A DNA stretch of 64,000 nucleotides from Clostridia bacterium. Its GTDB lineage: Bacteria > Bacillota > Clostridia > Christensenellales > CAG-138. The translations under genes were made by a program, and so were the position numbers. The notes below the pieces were generated by a model. It saw only the letters and a list, made by a program, of their open reading frames with translations, was not told the origin of the DNA and searched no databases. Each line of letters opens with the position of its first letter. Position 1 is the stretch's first letter. The stretch lies in NCBI GenBank assembly GCA_030533005.1, contig JAUNJX010000002.1:6429-70428 (forward strand), written 5' to 3'. Of this stretch, positions 41,363 through 52,325 are shown piece by piece.

Positions 41363-43153
41363 TTACTCCAATACGGCCTTGATGCGGCGCACGCCCGCGC
41401 TGCTGGCCTCCTCCTTTTTGATCTTGAACACGCCCAGGTCGCCCGTGTTGCCAGCGTGCGGCCCGCCGCAGATCTCCTTGGAGAATGTACCCATGGTGTA
41501 TACCTTCACGCGTTCGCCGTACTTGTCGCCGAAAAGACCGATTGCGCCCTGCGCGCGCGCCTCGTCCGGCGTCATTTCCTCGCAGACGATGGGGGCGGCG
41601 GCGGCGATGGCGGCGTTGACGAACGCCTCTACCTCCTTGAGCTCCTCGGGCGTTACCTTGCGGCCAAAGCTAAAGTCAAAGCGCAGGCGCTCCGCCGTGA
41701 TGTTGGAGCCGCGCTGGCTGATGGTGTCGTCCTCCAAGACCTTGCGAAGCCCCGCCTGCAAAAGATGCGTCGCGGTGTGCAGCTTGGCCGTCTGTTCGCT
41801 GGTGTCGGCAAGGCCGCCCTTGAAGCGCTGCTCCGCGCCCGCCTGCGACTTCTTCTGGTGGTTCTCAAACGCCTCCTCAAAGCCCTTCACGTCCACGGTC
41901 AGGCCGTTTTCACGCGCCATCTCCTCGGTGAATTCGATGGGGAAGCCGAAGGTGTCGTACAGGCGGAAGGCGCTTGCACCGTCGATTTTGCCGTCTGTAA
42001 AGCCGCCCTTGATGCGCTCGAACTCGCGCATGCCGTTTTTGAGCGTCTTTTGGAAGCGAAGCTCCTCGCGGTCAAGCTCCTCGTAGATGCGCGCGGCGTT
42101 GTCAGCAAGCTCGCTGTAGAATTTGCCGTACTGCGCGACGACCGCCTCGGCGACCTTCGCCAGACTGCCCTCCGGCATGTCAAGCTGCATGGCGAAGCGG
42201 AGCGCACGGCGGATCAAGCGGCGCAGGATATAGCCCTGATCGACGTTGGAGGGGGTCACGCCGCGCGGGTCGCCCAGCATGAAGGCGGCGCAGCGGATGT
42301 GATCCGCCACGATGCGGAAAGCCTTGATGGTGTCTGCACTGTCCTTGTAATTTTTGCCGGAAAGCTCGCTTATGCGCGCGATGATGCCCGCAAACGCGTC
42401 GGTGTCATAGACGCTCTCCACACCCTGCAGCGTGGCGATGGTGCGATCCAGCCCCATGCCCGTATCGACGTTCTGCTGCGCAAGCGGGGTGAAATGCCCC
42501 TCCGCGTCCTTGTTGTATTCCATAAAGACGTTGTTCCAGATCTCCAGATACTTGCCGCACGAGCAGGAGGGGTCGCAGTCGGGGCAGCATTTGGGCTTGC
42601 CCGTGTCGTAGAAGATTTCGGTATCCGGGCCGCAGGGACCCGTCGTGCCCGCGGGGCCCCACCAGTTATGCTTTTTATCAAGATAGAAGATATGCGAGGG
42701 GTCTACGCCCATCTCCACCCAGCGATCGTGGGAGAAGGTGTCCTGCGGGGCGTTCTCGTCGCCGCGGAAGCAGGTGAAATACAGCTTGTCCTTGGGGATA
42801 TCAAGGTATTCGGGGGAGGTCAAAAACTCCCATGAAAAGGCGATGGATTCCTTCTTGAAATAGTCGCCCAGCGACCAGTTGCCCAGCATCTCAAAGAAGG
42901 TGCAATGGCTCGCGTCGCCCACCTCGTCGATATCGCCCGTGCGCACGCATTTCTGGCAATCCACAAGCCGGACGCCCGCCGGATGCTTTTCGCCCATCAG
43001 ATATGGCACGAGGGGATGCATGCCCGCAGTCGTAAAGAGCACGGTGGGGTCGTTTTCGGGGATGAGGGAGGCAGACGGTATGACGGCATGGCCTTTTTTA
43101 CGGAAAAAGTCCAGATACAGCTCGCGGAGCTCATAGGATTTCAACAAACGCAT
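41363..43153 (-). CDS. alaS: alanine--tRNA ligase, short form (catalytic + editing domains, no C-Ala domain)
   Basis: ATG 43153. Motifs FTTAGMHPLVPY, TFFEMLGNWSLGDYFK, editing HTATHLL and CGGPH. Only 596 aa. Confidence 0.85.
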   Translation of the reverse strand: MRLLKSYELRELYLDFFRKKGHAVIPSASLIPENDPTVLFTTAGMHPLVPYLMGEKHPAGVRLVDCQKCVRTGDIDEVGDASHCTFFEMLGNWSLGDYFKKESIAFSWEFLTSPEYLDIPKDKLYFTCFRGDENAPQDTFSHDRWVEMGVDPSHIFYLDKKHNWWGPAGTTGPCGPDTEIFYDTGKPKCCPDCDPSCSCGKYLEIWNNVFMEYNKDAEGHFTPLAQQNVDTGMGLDRTIATLQGVESVYDTDAFAGIIARISELSGKNYKDSADTIKAFRIVADHIRCAAFMLGDPRGVTPSNVDQGYILRRLIRRALRFAMQLDMPEGSLAKVAEAVVAQYGKFYSELADNAARIYEELDREELRFQKTLKNGMREFERIKGGFTDGKIDGASAFRLYDTFGFPIEFTEEMARENGLTVDVKGFEEAFENHQKKSQAGAEQRFKGGLADTSEQTAKLHTATHLLQAGLRKVLEDDTISQRGSNITAERLRFDFSFGRKVTPEELKEVEAFVNAAIAAAAPIVCEEMTPDEARAQGAIGLFGDKYGERVKVYTMGTFSKEICGGPHAGNTGDLGVFKIKKEEASSAGVRRIKAVLE

Positions 43154-43218
43154 AAACAAACAATCCTTTCCCAATTCAAATATGTCCAAATGTGCACAGC
43201 ACAAAATATACCGCTTAC

Positions 43219-43247
43219 ATTATATAGAAAGCCGCTTTTCTTGTCAA
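43219..43247 (-). promoter_or_regulatory. promoter of alaS
   Basis: Minus strand TTGACA (complement of 43242-43247), 17-nt spacer, TATAAT (complement of 43219-43224). Confidence 0.55.
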
Positions 43248-43269
43248 CGAAGGCGTGTGCGGGTATAAT
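43241..43269 (+). promoter_or_regulatory. promoter of the 43277 gene (leaderless arrangement)
   Basis: TTGTCA (43241-43246), 17-nt spacer, TATAAT (43264-43269). The ATG follows 7 nt later with no Shine-Dalgarno. Confidence 0.5.
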
Positions 43270-43276
43270 AGGGAAC

Positions 43277-44206
43277 ATGAAAACTACGCTATTCAAGCAT
43301 AGGCCGAAAAGACCGGGGGAAAAGCGGAAGCTCAGCTTCACCCTCACGGGGCAGGAGGGCAAGCCGTGGCGCATCGCGCTCATGGGCGCTGCGGCGCTGC
43401 TGCTGGTTCTTCTTATCGTGGCGCTTTCCCGCGTGGAGCCGAATGCGCTTGGCAGCGCGGAGGTGCGCACCATTCAGGATCGCGGGGTACTTCGCGTGGG
43501 CGTCAGGGATGATATACCCGGCATGGGCTTTGCGCAAACGGGTCTGGAGGCGGAGCTTGGGGATATTCTTGCCCAGCGCCTGCTTCCCGACATTCCCGCG
43601 GGCAACAGCGTCAAATACGTCACGGTGGACAGCATGACCATAGGCCCCAAGATCGCGCAGGGCGCCATCGACGTGGCGATCGCCATGATGCCGCAGGGCG
43701 CGCAGCCCAAATTCCTCTACTCCCAGCCCTATTACAGCGACCCCTGCTACTTTATCACCTCCGTCACCACGCAAAGGCTGGTGTTACAGGGGATTCGCGC
43801 CGGGTGCGTGCAGAATACGCCGTCGGCTACGCTTCTGGAAAGCTATGTCGCCGCCCGCCCCAGCGCCAACATCACCATCGTCAAATACGCCTCCTATCCC
43901 GACATGATCGAGGCCGTGATGGAGAGCAACGTCGAGGTGGCGGTGATGACCCAGCTGTATATCGAGAAATATCAGGCGGAAACGGATGTAAATCCGGACA
44001 CGCTCGTACCCTTCATGCCGTATATCTTTCGAGCCAGCGCCGTTTCGCCGGGCACGGTCAATTACTGCATCGCCTGCCCCACGGACACGCCCGCGCTCAT
44101 CACGGTGGCGGATCTGGTGCTGGACGAATTGCAGCAAAGCGGGCAGCTCCAAAGCATGTATACAAAATACGGGCTGGTGCAAGACTATGCCCATGAAGAA
44201 GAATGA
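43277..44206 (+). CDS. membrane-anchored family-3 solute-binding-protein-like protein
   Basis: MKTTLFKHRPKRPGEKRK... then TM segment IALMGAAALLLVLLIVAL, followed by an SBP_bac_3-like body (GVLRVGVRDDIPGMGF). The track ORF from 42905 is an antisense-region extension. Confidence 0.72.
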   Translation: MKTTLFKHRPKRPGEKRKLSFTLTGQEGKPWRIALMGAAALLLVLLIVALSRVEPNALGSAEVRTIQDRGVLRVGVRDDIPGMGFAQTGLEAELGDILAQRLLPDIPAGNSVKYVTVDSMTIGPKIAQGAIDVAIAMMPQGAQPKFLYSQPYYSDPCYFITSVTTQRLVLQGIRAGCVQNTPSATLLESYVAARPSANITIVKYASYPDMIEAVMESNVEVAVMTQLYIEKYQAETDVNPDTLVPFMPYIFRASAVSPGTVNYCIACPTDTPALITVADLVLDELQQSGQLQSMYTKYGLVQDYAHEEE

Positions 44207-47287: not shown

Positions 47288-48193
47288 ATGAAGAAACTGA
47301 TGATGATCCTGATGGCAGCCCTGCTGCTCGTAAGCGCCTGCGCGTGCGCGGCGCCCGCCGCAGCCCCCGCCGCTACCGCCGATCCCGACGTGCTGGCAGA
47401 GGCCGAAGCGAGCTGGACGCTCTCTGAGGAAGCGCTCGCCGAAGAACCCGCGGCAGAACCCGCCGCGGAGGACGATCTTGCCTACATTACGGGCAAGGGC
47501 AACATGGTGATCGGCATCACCATCTTTGAGCCCATGAACTATTACGAGGGCGAAAAGCTGGTGGGCTTCGATACGGAGTTTGCGGAGGCCGTCTGCGCCA
47601 AGCTTGGCGTGACGCCTGAATTCATCGAGATCAACTGGGACACCAAGGAGACCGAGCTTGCCTCCAAGAACATCGACTGCATCTGGAACGGCCTGACCAT
47701 CACTGAGGATCGCAAGGCCAACATGGAGATCACCGATCCGTACATCAAGAACATGCAGGTGGTCGTGGTAAAGGCCGCGAATGCCGCGAACCTTGCGACC
47801 GTGGAAGCGCTTGGCGGCGCCAACCTCGTAGCCGAGATGGGCTCCGCGGGCGAGACCGTCATCAAGGAGGACGCCGTCCTCTCCGGTGCGAACTTCGTCG
47901 CCGTTGCCAAGCAGACCGACGCGCTGCTGGAGGTCAAGGCGGGCACGGCCGACGCGTGCGTGCTGGATTACACGCTTGCGAAGTCCATGGTGGGCGAGGG
48001 CACGGACTTTGCCGATTTGCAGATGGTGGACGGGCTTGAGCTTGCCGTCGAAGAATACGGCGTAGCCTTCCGCAAGGGCAGCAATGTTGCCGCGGCTGTC
48101 AACGAGCAGATCACGGCGCTCACGGGCGACGGCACCATGGACAAGATCGCGGAGACCTACGGCCTCACCGATTCGCTGCTGTCGAATCAGTAA
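47288..48193 (+). CDS. amino-acid ABC transporter substrate-binding lipoprotein
   Basis: Lipobox LLLVSAC and an Ala/Pro/Glu-rich linker, then an SBP_bac_3-like body (MVIGITIFEPMNYYEGEKLVGFDTEFA); RBS GAAGGAG. Confidence 0.85.
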   Translation: MKKLMMILMAALLLVSACACAAPAAAPAATADPDVLAEAEASWTLSEEALAEEPAAEPAAEDDLAYITGKGNMVIGITIFEPMNYYEGEKLVGFDTEFAEAVCAKLGVTPEFIEINWDTKETELASKNIDCIWNGLTITEDRKANMEITDPYIKNMQVVVVKAANAANLATVEALGGANLVAEMGSAGETVIKEDAVLSGANFVAVAKQTDALLEVKAGTADACVLDYTLAKSMVGEGTDFADLQMVDGLELAVEEYGVAFRKGSNVAAAVNEQITALTGDGTMDKIAETYGLTDSLLSNQ

Positions 48194-48385
48194 GAGCTTC
48201 GCTTTCGCGCGAAGTCTATCGGACTTCGCGCGACTTTTTCACGGGTCGCTTGCACCTTTGGTGCGGCCAGCGCCCCGTGCAGAGAAGCCCTTGCATAGCA
48301 AGGGCTTCCGAATCTGACGCGCATGTCGCCAGATTCGGTTTTAACCTCCGGGGGCTGCGGCCCCCGAACCCCCGGAGCTTTGGCA
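48194..48385. repeat. mosaic hairpin-array repeat, copy R10
   Basis: Starts GAGCTTCGCTTTCGCGCGAAG directly after the stop. CACGGG...CCCGTGCAGAGAAGCCCTTGCATAGCAAGGGCTT...GGGGGCTGCGGCCCCCGAACCCC is the inverted homolog of R7. Confidence 0.85.
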
Positions 48386-48405
48386 TATTGTAAAAAAGGA
48401 CTTAT

Positions 48406-49053
48406 ATGGATTTACTTACCGTTACATCAAGACTGCTGGAAGGCTTTTCCATCACCTGCAAGATATTTGCGCTGACCCTCGTGTTTGCGCTGCCGCTGGG
48501 TCTTGTGATCGCGTTTTGCTCCATGAGCAAGGTGCGGCTGGTCAAGTGGCTTTCGCGCACATTCGTCTGGATCATTCGCGGCACGCCGCTGATGCTGCAG
48601 GTCATTGTCGTTTTCTACGGCCCCGGCCTGCTCTGGGATATGCAGGCGTTCGGACGGCTGGACGCGGTGCTCATCGCCTTTATCATCAACTATGCCGCGT
48701 ATTTTTCCGAAATCTATCGCGGCGGCATCGAATCTATCCCCAAAGGGCAGTATGAGGCCGGGCAGGTGCTGGGCATGACAAAAGCGCAGATCTTCTTCAG
48801 GGTCATACTGTTGCAGGTGGTCAAGCGCATTTTGCCCCCCATGAGCAACGAGGTCATCACCTTGGTCAAGGATACGTCGCTTGCCCGCATCATCGCCGTC
48901 AAGGAGCTTATCATGATGGCGCAGGAGTACATTGCGACCTACGCGCTCATCTGGCCGCTGTTCTATTCGGGCGCGTTCTATCTGCTCTTTTGCGGGGCGC
49001 TGACGCTGCTGTTCGGGTATTTGGAAAAGCGGCTGGACTATTTCAGGGTTTGA
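48406..49053 (+). CDS. amino-acid ABC transporter permease
   Basis: HisM/GlnP-type permease with the EAA-loop region EAGQVLGMTKAQIFFRVILLQ. Confidence 0.9.
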   Translation: MDLLTVTSRLLEGFSITCKIFALTLVFALPLGLVIAFCSMSKVRLVKWLSRTFVWIIRGTPLMLQVIVVFYGPGLLWDMQAFGRLDAVLIAFIINYAAYFSEIYRGGIESIPKGQYEAGQVLGMTKAQIFFRVILLQVVKRILPPMSNEVITLVKDTSLARIIAVKELIMMAQEYIATYALIWPLFYSGAFYLLFCGALTLLFGYLEKRLDYFRV

Positions 49054-49088
49054 CGCGGACGCGATTGGGAAGGTAAGGTATAGACAGC

Positions 49089-49874
49089 ATGAGCGGTATT
49101 CTACAGGTACAGGGACTCAAAAAGCACTTCGACGCGACGGAGGTGCTAAACGGCATCGATTTTACGCTGGACAAGGGCGAGGTGCTTTCCATCATAGGCT
49201 CGTCGGGCAGCGGCAAAACGACGCTGCTGCGCTGCCTCAATTTCTTGGAAACGCCGGACGAGGGCAGGATCATCGTCAACGGCGAGACCCTCTTTGACGC
49301 AGCCGACCCCGCCACGCAGCGGGACGCGGATATACGGCAAAAGCGGCTTCGCTTTGGACTCGTGTTTCAAAACTTCAACCTTTTTCCCCAGTATACGGCC
49401 TTGCAAAACGTGACGCTCGCAAGCGAACTACTCGCCAAGGGCAAGCCGGAGTATCAGGCAAACAAGGCGAAGATCCACAACGAGATCAAGCAAAACGCCC
49501 TTGCGCTTCTTGAGCAGGTGGGGCTATCCGACAAGGCGGACAACCATCCGCACCAGCTTTCGGGCGGCCAGCAGCAGCGTGTGGCCATCGCGCGCGCGCT
49601 TGCCCTGAAGCCGGATATACTCTGCTTTGACGAGCCCACGAGCGCGCTTGACCCCGAGATTTCCGGCGAGGTGCTTCGCGCCATACGCAAGCTTGCCGAG
49701 CGCAGGATGACCATGGTGATCGTGACCCACGAGATGGGCTTTGCCCGCGAGGTGTCCAGCCGCGTCATGTTTATGGACGGCGGGCGCATCGCGGAGGAGG
49801 GACGCCCCGAGGCGGTGTTCGGCGCGCCCAAGAGCGAACGGCTGCGCGCGTTTTTGAAGGCGGTCATTCAATAG
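49089..49874 (+). CDS. amino-acid ABC transporter ATP-binding protein
   Basis: Walker [10 protein letters not shown], signature [15 protein letters not shown], Walker [13 protein letters not shown]. Confidence 0.92.
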
Positions 49875-49905
49875 GCCGCGAAAGGTAAAAGCAGGGTAAA
49901 ATGCC

Positions 49906-50199
49906 ATGTATGAAAGCAGATTAAAAAGCGAGGCGGCGGATGCGCTGTTCAAGGCCATTCTGGCGCTGCAAAACGAGGAGGAGTGTTACCGCTTCTTTGA
50001 GGATGTGTGCACCATCAGCGAGGTTGGCTCCATCGCGCAGCGCTGGGAGGTGGCAAGGCTTCTCTTTGAGGGTCTTACCTACAGCGCCATCGCAGAACGG
50101 ACGGGGGCGAGCACCGCGACCGTATCGCGCGTGGGCAAATGCCTCAATTATGGCGCGAACGGCTACCGGCTGGTACTCGATCGGCTTGCGGACAAATAG
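49906..50199 (+). CDS. YerC/YecD-family TrpR-like protein
   Basis: FFEDVCTISEVGSIAQRWEVARLL...TGASTATVSRVGKCLNYGANGY matches the YerC/YecD pattern. Confidence 0.8.
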   Translation: MYESRLKSEAADALFKAILALQNEEECYRFFEDVCTISEVGSIAQRWEVARLLFEGLTYSAIAERTGASTATVSRVGKCLNYGANGYRLVLDRLADK

Positions 50200-50203
50200 A
50201 CTA

Positions 50204-50232
50204 TTGACAATTCCTAGCAGTTCACTTATAAT
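50204..50232 (+). promoter_or_regulatory. promoter of the cysK leader
   Basis: TTGACA (50204-50209), 17-nt spacer, TATAAT (50227-50232). Confidence 0.6.
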
Positions 50233-50238
50233 TGGCGC

Positions 50239-50292
50239 ATGATGAATTTTGAGGCATGTTTCTGTTGTTGTTGTACACAGGGACGCCCGTAA
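50239..50292 (+). CDS. candidate polycysteine leader peptide MMNFEACFCCCCTQGRP
   Basis: 17 codons plus stop with TGT TTC TGT TGT TGT TGT at 50257-50274. The ATG is 6 nt after the -10 hexamer with no SD. Followed by hairpins and a terminator upstream of cysK. Confidence 0.45.
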   Translation: MMNFEACFCCCCTQGRP

Positions 50293-50374
50293 AGCCGAAG
50301 GGCGGACGCGGGCGGCTCCTATAGCCGTGCCTGTGTCCATAACAGCGGAAGGTCTTTTATTTGTAAGAAAAGAC

Positions 50375-50407
50375 AAAGCTATGTGCATAGGCATATAGCT
50401 TTTTTTG
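50375..50407 (+). terminator. leader (attenuator) terminator upstream of cysK
   Basis: AGCTATGTGC (50377-50386), loop ATAG, GCATATAGCT (50391-50400), T6 (50401-50406). Confidence 0.7.
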
Positions 50408-50477
50408 CGCTTCGCTTGCACCCCATATATTGGGTTTGCACATAGATTATAAGAAATACCAAAGGAGGAATTACAAA

Positions 50478-51440
50478 ATGGAGACCATTGCAAACGCAGT
50501 CGGCAACACGCCTTTGATCCGTATCGACTACCGCTACGAGGGCAGGGACGGCTGTATCTATACGAAGCTGGAAAGCTATAACCTCACCGGCAGCATCAAG
50601 GACAGGATGGTGGCGTATGTGCTCAAGCAGGCGCAGGAAAAGGCGGAGCTGAAAACCGGCCAGCCCATCGTGGAAACGACCTCCGGCAACACGGGCATTT
50701 CCATCGCCGCCTACGGCAGCAGCCTGGGGCATCCCGTGCACATCTTCATGCCGGATTGGGCGAGCCGGGAGCGCACGGAGCTCATGCGCATGTACGGCGC
50801 GGTCGTCCACCCCGTATCCCGCGAGGAGGGCGGCTTTATCGAAGCGCTGCGCCGATCCTATCTCTTTGCCAAGGAGGTCGGGGCATACCGCACGGATCAG
50901 TTCAACAACTACGATAACGTCATGGCACATTACTATGGCGTAGGCCCCGAGCTGTTGCAAGCCTTGCCCGACGTGGGCGCCTTTGTTTCCGGCGTGGGTA
51001 CGGGCGGCACGCTCATGGGCGTCACCAAGAGGCTCAAGGAGGATCACCCCACCCTTGCCGTCGCCGTGGAGCCGGACGCGGCCCCCATGCTAAGCGAAGG
51101 CAGGATCTACGGCCCGCACGGCATCGAGGGCATAGGCGACGACTTCATCCCCACCATCGTGGATAAAAGAAAGATCGACAGGGTCATCACCGTCAACGAT
51201 AAAGACGCCATGAACATGTCCCGCATGCTCGCGCGCGTGCTGGGGCTGGGCGTGGGCATATCCTCCGGCGCCAACCTGCTGGGCGCTGTGCAGCTCAAAG
51301 CTGGCATGGACGCGCCCGTCGCCACCGTATTTGCGGACGACAACAAAAAGTATCTCTCCACCGCCCTTTGCGGCGAGATCGTGGAGGAGGAAGGGTTTAT
51401 CTCCAATAAGATCGAGCTGTTAAGGTATGAGAGGGTGTAA
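50478..51440 (+). CDS. cysK: cysteine synthase (O-acetylserine sulfhydrylase family)
   Basis: ATG 50478 after AAAGGAGGA. PLP-lysine region ESYNLTGSIKDR and TSGNTGISIA, GVGTGGTLMG. Confidence 0.9.
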   Translation: METIANAVGNTPLIRIDYRYEGRDGCIYTKLESYNLTGSIKDRMVAYVLKQAQEKAELKTGQPIVETTSGNTGISIAAYGSSLGHPVHIFMPDWASRERTELMRMYGAVVHPVSREEGGFIEALRRSYLFAKEVGAYRTDQFNNYDNVMAHYYGVGPELLQALPDVGAFVSGVGTGGTLMGVTKRLKEDHPTLAVAVEPDAAPMLSEGRIYGPHGIEGIGDDFIPTIVDKRKIDRVITVNDKDAMNMSRMLARVLGLGVGISSGANLLGAVQLKAGMDAPVATVFADDNKKYLSTALCGEIVEEEGFISNKIELLRYERV

Positions 51441-51454
51441 CGAAAACAATGCGT

Positions 51455-51524
51455 AAAACTCGCCCCCGGTCGCATGACCGGGGGCGAAGCGCTACTGCGC
51501 ATGACCGGGGGCGAAGCGCTACTG
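51455..51524. repeat. hairpin module plus 27-bp tandem duplication (copy R11)
   Basis: CGCCCCCGGT-CGCATG-ACCGGGGGCG hairpin. CGCATGACCGGGGGCGAAGCGCTACTG occurs twice in tandem (51471-51497, 51498-51524). The second copy contains the mscS stop codon. Confidence 0.85.
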
Positions 51525-52325
51525 CGCAATATGCACATCAAGCTGCGGGAAGGGGATACTTACGCCCTCCTTTTCAAACGCGGCCTTGACCGCCTCGTTC
51601 ATTTCGCCCGGGACAGAGGCGTAATCCTCCACCTTGCAGTATACCAGCAGCAAGCATACCAGCGCGCTATCCTCCATGCGGGAAAGCACCATGGCGGGCG
51701 CGGGATCTGAAAGCACGCGCGCGTTTTTTTGCGCCGCGTCCAACAGTATCCGGCGCACCTTCTCCACATCCGTGCCGTAGGCCACGATATATTCAAGATC
51801 CTGCCGAAGATAAGGCTCTGCGGAATAGTTGATGACGCGGCCGTTGGAGAGGTTGCCGTTGGGCAGCACCACGCAGCGGTTGTCCCGCGTGCGGATGGTG
51901 GTATAGAACATGCTGACGTCCGTGACCGTGCCCGTCTCGCCGCCCGGCTCCTCGATCACGTCGCCCACCTCGAAGGGCTTAAACAGCAGCACCATCATGC
52001 CGCCCGCAAAGTTGGAAAGGCTGCCCTGCATGGCAAGGCCGATAGCGAGACCCACCGAGCCAAGCAGTGCCACAAGCGATGAGGTCGGCACGCCCACAAC
52101 GCCCGCCGCGATGATGACGAGCATAGCCTTGAGCGCAAAGCCCGCGAAGCTTTTCAGGAATGACGTGGCGCTGGGGCCGATATGCGCTGCCAAGCGGGAC
52201 TTGGGCAGGCGCTTGAGCAGATGATTGACGACGCGGAAGGCCGCAAACAGGCACGCAAGCGTGAGGAGCACCGTCATGAGCTCCCGCATGAAGGGCTTTT
52301 CTAAAAACGCCCAAATCGTTTCCAT
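51519..52325 (-). CDS. mscS: small-conductance mechanosensitive channel
   Basis: TM3/beta-domain motif GLAMQGSLSNFAGGMMVLLFKPFEVGDVI typical of MscS. Confidence 0.85.
   Translation of the reverse strand: METIWAFLEKPFMRELMTVLLTLACLFAAFRVVNHLLKRLPKSRLAAHIGPSATSFLKSFAGFALKAMLVIIAAGVVGVPTSSLVALLGSVGLAIGLAMQGSLSNFAGGMMVLLFKPFEVGDVIEEPGGETGTVTDVSMFYTTIRTRDNRCVVLPNGNLSNGRVINYSAEPYLRQDLEYIVAYGTDVEKVRRILLDAAQKNARVLSDPAPAMVLSRMEDSALVCLLLVYCKVEDYASVPGEMNEAVKAAFEKEGVSIPFPQLDVHIAQ

Follow-up and report, generated by a model that had tools for sequence, protein, structure and literature searches.

Leader-peptide attenuators govern the enterobacterial trp, his, leu, thr, ilv and pheA operons. In Firmicutes, textbook RNA-level control of amino-acid genes is by T-boxes and riboswitches, leader peptides are rare (His, in bacilli), and cysteine genes are classically described as under T-box (Cys), S-box/SAM riboswitch or CymR control. 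The first amino-acid-specific leader peptides noted in Firmicutes are those for His, which precede hisZ and hisS paralogues in bacilli, in a study that reports no cysteine example (Naville & Gautheret 2010, PMC2965389). Cys leader peptides have been predicted in Actinobacteria, without terminators (Seliverstov et al. 2005, PMC1262725). The leaderless polycysteine short open reading frames (sORFs) of mycobacteria, Ms5788A and its relatives, act translationally via sequestration of the Shine-Dalgarno sequence, in work that described cysteine attenuation mediated by an upstream open reading frame (ORF) as previously undescribed (Canestrari et al. 2020, 10.1101/834739). The uORFC-8-2 motif upstream of cysS in Rhodobacterales is a predicted ribosome-mediated attenuator (Brewer et al. 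2021, PMC8632094). Here we analyse 64,000 nt of a Clostridia bacterium (‘the window’: assembly GCA_030533005.1, contig JAUNJX010000002.1, positions 6,429 to 70,428, forward strand), in which a Cys-codon sORF at window positions 50239-50292 and an intrinsic terminator stand between a promoter and a gene of the cysteine-synthase family. With a probability of roughly 0.77, this element controls that gene by ribosome-mediated transcription attenuation, its leader peptide serving to sense charged tRNA-Cys.

The window leader and the mycobacterial sORFs share a short ORF with Cys codons near its 3′ end, placed (in the window, probably) at the 5′ end of the transcript, cysteine-related genes and, as proposed for the window, relief of repression by stalling on Cys codons at cysteine scarcity. 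They differ in phylum, in downstream gene family and in output: the mycobacterial Cys tract pairs with the Shine-Dalgarno sequence and there is no terminator, whereas the window leader has a terminator and an overlapping antiterminator. The mycobacterial sORFs are leaderless, whereas in the family described here leaderless geometry is found only in a high-GC branch, and low-GC members have a Shine-Dalgarno sequence. The window leader resembles uORFC-8-2 in that its first stem contains Cys codons and its last stem leads into a U run. That motif, however, has its two Cys codons in tandem at positions 14-15 (mostly UGC) and precedes cysS in alpha-proteobacteria only, whereas members of the window family have three to five UGU codons near the end of a 12-20-codon ORF and precede a cysteine-synthase-family gene in Firmicutes (Clostridia/Oscillospiraceae). 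The His leaders of bacilli are likewise amino-acid-specific leader peptides with terminators in Firmicutes, and differ in amino acid, genes, sequence and lineage. T-box, S-box and CymR systems also couple cysteine or sulfur supply to cysK-type genes, the first two again through a terminator/antiterminator choice, but T-boxes and S-boxes bind tRNA or ligand directly whereas the window element would sense through the translating ribosome. The enterobacterial attenuators share regulatory codons in a leader ORF, competing helices and an intrinsic terminator, with termination when translation is fast or absent and read-through only on a regulatory-codon stall. They use four strands, whereas five are predicted here (1:2, 2:3 = hairpin Hb, 3:4 = antiterminator, 4:5 = terminator) plus a further helix, P1; their stalled ribosome masks strand 1, whereas our model leaves it free; and the window leader probably starts leaderless and would sense cysteine. 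Full-text searches, whose coverage leaves out most subscription journals, turned up no cysteine leader peptide from Firmicutes, Clostridia included. The literature searched places Cys leader peptides in Actinobacteria and upstream of Rhodobacterales cysS, not in Firmicutes, in agreement with the novelty claimed when the locus was first noted from its sequence. The element thus appears to be of a known kind, a leader-peptide transcription attenuator, with a new family, phylum and gene family; its probable combination of leaderless start and terminator, for which we found no earlier description, would be a further novelty if confirmed.

The promoter and 5′ part of the element comprise the following features:

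50204-50209, + strand: −35 hexamer TTGACA, consensus, in 8/8 members of the high-GC subgroup.
50227-50232, + strand: −10 hexamer TATAAT, 17-nt spacer, 12/12 consensus match for the two hexamers.
50239-50292, + strand: leader ORF MMNFEACFCCCCTQGRP plus stop (17 codons and stop: ATG ATG AAT TTT GAG GCA TGT TTC TGT TGT TGT TGT ACA CAG GGA CGC CCG TAA); A50239 is the predicted transcription start.
50257-50274, + strand: regulatory Cys codons and proposed stall site (TGT 50257-59, TGT x4 50263-74).

Both the promoter and the sORF described in the original prediction can be read directly from the sequence. The sigma-70 promoter is the only promoter-like site found by a promoter scan of 49500-51600 and one of three perfect TTGACA-N17-TATAAT sites in 64 kb. 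Sites with at most one mismatch number 7 in 64 kb where 0.11 are expected, so the organism appears to use TTGACA-N17-TATAAT promoters. The sORF ATG lies 6 nt 3′ of the −10 box. Cys accounts for five of codons 7-12, every one TGT, although TGT makes up 13% of the Cys codons in the 49 long ORFs of the window. The window contains 3 TGYx4 runs against 0.19 expected, and only the leader run sits in an intergenic ORF with start codon, promoter and terminator. No further copy of the leader was found in the 64-kb window, including upstream of its cystine-like ABC operon.

Conservation was assessed at 80 flanked loci, those encoding the nearest homologues of the downstream protein at species level. In the interval −350 to −100, 24 of the 80 loci contain a run of at least three Cys codons (24 runs in total), against 1.03 expected from the remainder of those loci, a ~23-fold enrichment (P ~1e-24). 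The runs occur in short ATG-initiated ORFs 130-300 nt 5′ of the orthologous gene, for example MKNFEACFCCCMTQRRP, MILINIISNCCCCMK, MKIRNMFVNCCCCMK, MTKCCCCCSFCFFLPY, MNLVYLISVKENICCCRC and MRNEFVKTCCCKTWGG; among relatives generally, conserved runs number 2-5 Cys codons. Five closer relatives obtained through the protein database (70-91% protein identity) have the sORFs MMNFEACFCCTCTQGRP, MTNMVMNSCCCIRLGRPQAA, MKTMKACFCCCITQGRP, MKIFEACCCMDKGRP and MKFLWKENCCTGIQGRP, so that the search of relatives proposed with the original prediction returned Cys-run ORFs in 24/80 species and in these five. A hairpin and T run lie between sORF stop and gene in all 24 leaders examined. The terminator is related in sequence in relatives (CTATGTG...CACATAG), and is 90-95% paired with 2 compensatory pairs. 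A strict scan of ~90 loci plus the window on both strands, for ATG-initiated sORFs of at most 35 codons with CCC, in which the stop had to fall no more than 30 nt from the run and a terminator no more than 220 nt away, gave 19 hits, 19/19 directly 5′ of the enzyme gene. A scan of metagenomes for GACACAGGCACG-N40-70-RCARCARCA returned 17 Oscillibacter-type leaders, all 5′ of the same enzyme gene; it gave no new gene partners, and apart from 38 antisense matches (below) the others were due to chance. That the ORF itself arose by chance between promoter and terminator, as the frequency of short ORFs and the two other TGYx4 runs of the window might suggest, is effectively refuted by this enrichment and gene position, by compensatory changes in relatives and by a model of the low-GC leaders that hits 50239-50405 exactly.

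Throughout the high-GC subgroup (8/8 members), TTGACA is followed after 17-18 nt by TATAAT (TAATAT in L002) and after another 6-7 nt by ATG; the leaderless-type geometry pointed out for the window is thus conserved. Transcription usually starts about 7 nt after the −10 box, which here falls on the A of the sORF AUG and makes a Shine-Dalgarno sequence impossible; from this promoter-ATG geometry we infer leaderless initiation in the subgroup. Oscillibacter-type leaders have 9 nt between an extended −10 box and the ATG. Low-GC leaders have a 5′ untranslated region (UTR) with AAAGGAA or GGAAGG 7-10 nt before the ATG, Allofournierella leaders have AAGGTGA before the ATG, and the leaders of L013 and L014 have AGGTGAT. 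Two kinds of start signal for one sORF argue for its translation and for abandonment of the 5′ UTR in the high-GC branch. Elsewhere in the window, a second near-consensus promoter (43241-43269, + strand, TTGTCA-17-TATAAT) is followed 7 nt after its −10 box by an ATG at 43277 (MKTTLFKHRPKRPGEKRK...), likely the true start of a solute-binding-protein gene within ORF 42905-44206; the organism may therefore use leaderless starts at other genes as well.

From the Cys codons onward, the leader is predicted to fold into alternative helices whose strands are as follows:

50259-50281, + strand: 5′ strand of P1 (Cys codons and ACACAGG), formed when no ribosome is on the sORF.
50279-50290, + strand: strand 1, AGGGACGCCCGU, the last sORF codons, predicted to pair with strand 2 while a ribosome is on the Cys codons.
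50294-50303, + strand: small hairpin after the stop codon, GCC GAAG GGC, from the fold.
50304-50320, + strand: strand 2, the 5′ arm of Hb (50304-17) and alternative partner of strand 1 (50308-20).
50323-50338, + strand: strand 3, AGCCGUGCCUGUGUCC, the 3′ arm of Hb, of which 50327-36 is the 5′ strand of the antiterminator.
50339-50351, + strand: complement of the Cys codons, AUAACAGCGGAAG, forming the 3′ strand of the lower stem of P1.
50352-50374, + strand: weak spacer hairpin GUCUUUU/AAAAGAC, −3.5 kcal/mol.
50377-50406, + strand: intrinsic terminator, −11.6 kcal/mol, U run 50400-06.
50385-50394, + strand: strand 4, GCAUAGGCAU, comprising the end of the terminator 5′ arm, the loop and the start of the 3′ arm; antiterminator partner of 50327-36.

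The fold of 50239-50412 has an energy of −73.6 kcal/mol (z = −5.8 against dinucleotide shuffles). The terminator noted originally forms in every unconstrained fold of the window leader, with a stem of 50378-86/50391-99 plus A50377-U50400, the loop AUAG and U7 to 50406; a simple consensus terminator scan does not list it. P1 pairs 50259-81 with 50330-51, the Cys codons pairing with 50339-51, and includes in the minimum-energy fold the expected ACACAGG (50275-81)/CCTGTGT (50330-36) pairing, which engages part of strand 3. Its lower stem in the window reaches −14.4 kcal/mol, a value matched by 0/300 shuffles. In the subgroup this stem was judged by per-sequence duplex energies rather than alignment columns, the column-wise test having been dropped because the register differs between sequences. 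Hb pairs 50304-17 with 50323-38 (−19.8 kcal/mol), and the CGGCT/AGCCG hairpin of the original prediction is the tip of this 14-bp helix; Hb is 90% paired in eight relatives, with 3 compensatory pairs. Strand 1 (50279-90) can pair with 50308-20 of strand 2, and the antiterminator pairs 50327-36 with 50385-94 over 10 bp, a helix that shares bases with both arms of the terminator and with its loop. The spanning CGCCC (50284-88)/GGGCG (50300-04) pairing that had been suggested is not favoured, and CGCCCG pairs with CGGGCG (50309-14) instead; GTCTTTT/AAAAGAC (50352-58/50368-74) is present as suggested but weak. Counterparts of the post-stop hairpin in relatives are GCCG/CGGC, GCCGC/GCGGC and GCUCU/AGAGC, and its poor column-wise count is due to indels. 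A pairing of freed ACAGCGG with the terminator 5′ arm was also considered and rejected by eye for having too few pairs.

In the alignment of eight members of the high-GC subgroup, the sORF is followed by the block GGCGGAYGCGGGCGGCYCC ... GCCGUGCCUGUGUCC and a terminator of consensus GCUAUGUGCAUAGGCRYAUAGC-U(n). The element GTGCCTGT within strand 3 is invariant across the subgroup, the 1:2 pairing is kept in 82% of cells in eight relatives and the antiterminator pairing in 91% of cells of the subgroup, with no covariation for the latter.

Mutually exclusive terminator and antiterminator structures, sought since the original prediction, emerge when the leader is folded with a ribosome footprint masked and the transcript is truncated at the decision point (3′ end 50394 or 50396), with the final 3-5 nt of the terminator 3′ arm still to be made. 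With the A-site on C7, C9, C10, C11 or C12, the probability of the 1:2 helix is 0.85-0.99, that of Hb 0.00 and that of the antiterminator 0.93-0.98 (0.60 for C7 at 50396). With the A-site on G15 or the stop codon, the antiterminator falls to 0.00 and Hb rises to 0.97, and with no ribosome P1 has a probability of 0.99 and the antiterminator 0.00. A per-codon scan gives the same picture for the terminator 5′ arm, whose pairing with upstream sequence scores 0.0-0.2 for codons 2-6, 0.9-1.0 for C7-C12 and 0.3 by the stop. For the full-length window leader at equilibrium, the terminator probability dips (0.70) only with the A-site on Cys codons; with the ribosome so placed it is 0.27 in L001, 0.02-0.05 in L207 and 0-0.4 in L209. 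The 10-bp antiterminator register, obtained by ensemble sampling, then has an energy in the window of −48.7 kcal/mol against −50.0 kcal/mol for the terminator state, a gap of 1.3. In these calculations, the choice between exclusive structures depends on whether the ribosome is at the Cys codons or at the stop. The leader thus combines a start signal, a Cys cluster, an intrinsic terminator, an exclusive antiterminator and, in silico, position dependence.

These features suggest the following mechanism. Transcription would start at or next to A50239, the RNA would begin with the sORF AUG, and a ribosome would load without a Shine-Dalgarno sequence. When Cys-tRNA is scarce, the ribosome would stall as any of the five UGU codons (50257-74) enters the A-site, its footprint hiding the Cys run and ACACAGG and leaving strand 1 (50279-90) free. 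Strand 1 would pair with strand 2 (50308-20), keeping strand 3 (50327-36) single-stranded, and strand 4 (50385-94), as it emerges, would pair at once with strand 3 to form the antiterminator. Because the antiterminator occupies the distal 5′ arm of the terminator, its loop and the first bases of its 3′ arm, polymerase would read through into the gene. When Cys-tRNA is plentiful, the ribosome would reach the stop codon and cover strand 1, strands 2 and 3 would close Hb (50304-38), and with Hb closed the terminator (50378-99 plus U7) would form and stop transcription. With no ribosome, for example on read-through from the upstream operon, the sORF would pair with 50330-51 in P1 and the terminator would form, and termination of such transcripts would insulate the gene from that operon. 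No terminator lies between the stop of the upstream yerC-like gene (50199) and the leader promoter, so read-through transcripts would carry the sORF without its start signal.

A comparable switch is computed for low-GC relatives. In 8 of 11 well-aligning low-GC leaders folded with a ribosome footprint (A-site −15 to +11), the terminator probability is ~0.99 without a ribosome or with one at the stop and ~0.00 with the A-site on Cys codons. Their P1 pairs the sORF with the region containing CAUGCCUACAG. The H1 hairpin directly follows the sORF stop; its 3′ half can instead join CAUGCCUACAG to make H2, and the antiterminator (AT) pairs AUGCCUACA with UGUGGGCAU, the 5′ arm and loop of the terminator (T). 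P1 plus T is 92% paired with 7 compensatory pairs (0/500 shuffles as good), H2 plus T is 96% paired and H1 plus AT 92% paired; the helix homologous to the window antiterminator is 89% paired, with one compensatory pair. In both groups the strand that needs to be free (strand 1 in the window, the H1 5′ arm in low-GC leaders) begins 8-12 nt after the last Cys codon, which in the model is just beyond the reach of a ribosome that has halted at the first codons of the Cys run. A covariance model built from the 11 low-GC leaders only and run against 79 sources ranks L052, then the degenerate L050, and third the window at 50239-50405, its single hit on both strands of the 64 kb (26 bits, rough E ~0.04). 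The alignment runs end to end, matching start codon, Cys codons, P1 and terminator each to its counterpart, and supports, short of proving, that low-GC and high-GC leaders are related groups.

Some features of the leader would also be expected of a structured, non-translated RNA that binds a ligand, protein or tRNA to control the terminator, with the TGT run as a helix strand and the ORF incidental: the TGT run is base-paired in P1, the stability of the fold is high (z = −5.8), and GCGGGCGGCTCC and GCCGTGCCTGTGTCC form blocks that hardly vary in nucleotides. We nevertheless regard this as unlikely. In its other two frames a TGT repeat becomes a run of Leu (TTG) or Val (GTT) codons, so all three frames were tested; an upstream in-frame ATG occurs for the Cys frame in 30/30 leaders, for the Val frame in 0/30 and for the Leu frame in 9/30, which rules out the Leu and Val readings and argues against an incidental ORF. 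The start has either a well-spaced Shine-Dalgarno sequence or a promoter at the distance that suits a leaderless AUG. In every case no more than ~6 codons separate the end of the Cys run from a stop, and the run is retained even where the P1 partner is not. Four leader groups of different architecture have only the Cys-sORF and the terminator in common. No T-box, S-box/SAM or other Rfam family was found on 49800-50800 at E up to 10 (Rfam 15), nor any hit at the gathering threshold on the leaders of eight members, and 20 sORF-less loci show no known riboswitch upstream either. Conservation, a terminator in 24/24 leaders, ribosome-dependent folding and this lack of a riboswitch or T-box match together support the attenuator layout that had been proposed from the window.

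A translational attenuator of the mycobacterial type, in which the sORF hides or exposes the Shine-Dalgarno sequence of the gene and transcription does not terminate, would have in common with the window leader a probably leaderless polycysteine sORF 5′ of a cysteine-related gene and a very stable fold. This is improbable given where the downstream gene begins:

50464-50468, + strand: Shine-Dalgarno sequence GGAGG of the regulated gene, unpaired with the leader.
50478-51440, + strand: PLP (pyridoxal phosphate)-dependent cysteine-synthase-family enzyme, 320 amino acids, Fn1055/CysK2 type, from profile and structure-relative searches.

In the fold of 50239-50500 the GGAGG, 58 nt past the terminator, is not paired to the leader; the partner of the Cys codons is 50339-51 instead, and all 24 leaders have a hairpin and U-run terminator, which mycobacterial leaders lack.

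A functional Cys-rich micropeptide, for example metal-binding or redox-active, co-expressed with the enzyme, is slightly less probable still. It would account for the conserved ORF and start signal and for the C-terminal GRP of the subgroup. Outside the Cys run, however, peptides are unrelated between leader groups (MMNFEACFCCCCTQGRP, MILINIISNCCCCMK, MTKCCCCCSFCFFLPY, MNLVYLISVKENICCCRC), the conserved GGGACGCCC is accounted for by RNA pairing, and a terminator separates sORF and gene. In one species cluster of Oscillibacter-type leaders (L088-L200) the stop itself is polymorphic, AAG ACA TAG versus AAG ACA CAG GAC GGC TGA, giving ...CCCKT* or ...CCCKTQDG* with the RNA otherwise kept. Diverging peptides and a moved stop suggest that selection acts on translation and on the RNA, not on the peptide.

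Several points weigh against the transcription attenuator, beginning with the purely computational basis of the whole account. At full-length equilibrium the window terminator is still favoured (P 0.70-1.0), so that the model needs kinetic, co-transcriptional control. Little or no equilibrium switch appears in 4/8 subgroup leaders, and none in L201, L002, the Allofournierella group and L021/L035. The measure of 5′-arm sequestration is too noisy across 30 leaders and usable for the window alone. Conservation of the 1:2 and antiterminator pairings taken together (83%) comes without covariation and does not exceed the shuffle control; both helices are almost invariant in the subgroup, hence the missing covariation signal. 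The P1 lower stem, strong in the window, is not so in L001, L209, L002 and L201. The low-GC model gave a weak window hit of 26 bits and recovered no other high-GC leader. Two further points concern the enzyme: Fusobacterium FN1055 homologues lack the Cys leader, and the reaction assayed for Fn1055 is cysteine degradation, a direction that fits poorly with induction by cysteine shortage.

The regulated gene had been called cysK. Its assignment to the cysteine-synthase family stands, with the ATG set to 50478, whereas canonical CysK does not: the product is a PLP fold-type II enzyme that scores below all relevant NCBIfam cut-offs (cysK 245/351, cysM 215/394 and the cysKM subfamily 268/344 bits), and its nearest solved relative, at 312 bits against 203 for the next, is PDB 5B53, Fusobacterium nucleatum Fn1055/CysK2. 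An identical protein at NCBI is annotated ‘cysteine synthase family protein’ in a Clostridia metagenome-assembled genome (MAG). Fn1055/CysK2 converts L-cysteine and water to L-serine and H2S in vitro and is barely expressed in rich medium. A gene that is on when Cys-tRNA is scarce suggests, as a hypothesis, that these anaerobes use the enzyme for synthesis. We give even odds to the joint reading that the leaders form an undescribed, widespread Cys-attenuator family of Bacillota (Oscillospiraceae, other gut Clostridia, Erysipelotrichaceae-like Bacilli and Anaerovoracaceae), that its high-GC branch lost the 5′ UTR and lets a leaderless AUG drive the terminator decision, and that, as a corollary, enzymes of the Fn1055/CysK2 type are induced by cysteine shortage and work in the synthetic direction. 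If this is true, these enzymes, known as H2S-releasing ‘cysteine (hydroxyl) lyases’, would make cysteine from serine and sulfide in sulfide-rich gut anaerobes. The leader would be a sequence-only marker for cysteine-synthase paralogues switched on by cysteine shortage, with a bearing on the debated in vivo direction of the Fn1055/CysK2 enzymes and on gut sulfide and cysteine economy, and a compact cysteine-responsive part for anaerobe engineering. It would also represent a cis-regulatory RNA/sORF family missed by current MAG annotation and Rfam, and its Shine-Dalgarno-led and leaderless versions a natural comparison of ribosome loading mode and transcription-translation coupling.

In the window the leader is preceded by genes for a cystine-like ABC transporter (47288-49874, + strand) and a YerC/YecD TrpR-like protein (49906-50199, + strand), the latter above its NCBIfam cut-off. 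L204, L207 and L208 share this arrangement of ABC ATPase, YerC, leader and enzyme, as does L201 over the extent of its short, 5′-truncated contig; this hints that the orphan YerC/YecD regulator family is linked to cysteine metabolism. The Cys leader is absent upstream of Serpentinicella and Clostridium sp. homologues of the enzyme. Methanobrevibacter MAGs (L061, L065, L069, L070, L073 and L077) encode homologues 55-56% identical, with no Cys leader, probably through transfer from gut Firmicutes to archaea.

Several minor observations concern the sORF. TGT also prevails in the sORFs of relatives (mostly TGT), a preference that could help the run to pair with ACAGCGG or could slow its decoding through wobble. 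Most subgroup members (L201, L207, L208, L209) end their sORF in Gly-Arg-Pro-stop (50281-50292 in the window), nucleotides that coincide with strand 1 of the switch. Pro-stop is a slow-termination context, and could hold the ribosome on strand 1. L017 (2806-2962) has a variant member with Cys-Tyr-Cys, and the degenerate member in L050 (2834-2976) has CCC and the family terminator and no in-frame ATG. A group of 38 metagenome matches (L093 and 37 similar; ‘YWSRYASWYSCCC*’) was rejected as the antisense of a conserved membrane-protein gene in gut metagenomes. Between the terminator and the Shine-Dalgarno sequence of the gene, the window has an extra hairpin (50417-50440, + strand, UGCA-CCCA...UGGG-UGCA), and relatives have a CCCC/GGGG-type hairpin at the matching place. 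Just 5′ of the cysK-like gene of L008 (~2670-2900), three ~37-nt direct repeats ATTATATCATATCAAAACTTAGAAGAGAACTATAAC with spacers look like a small CRISPR-like array.

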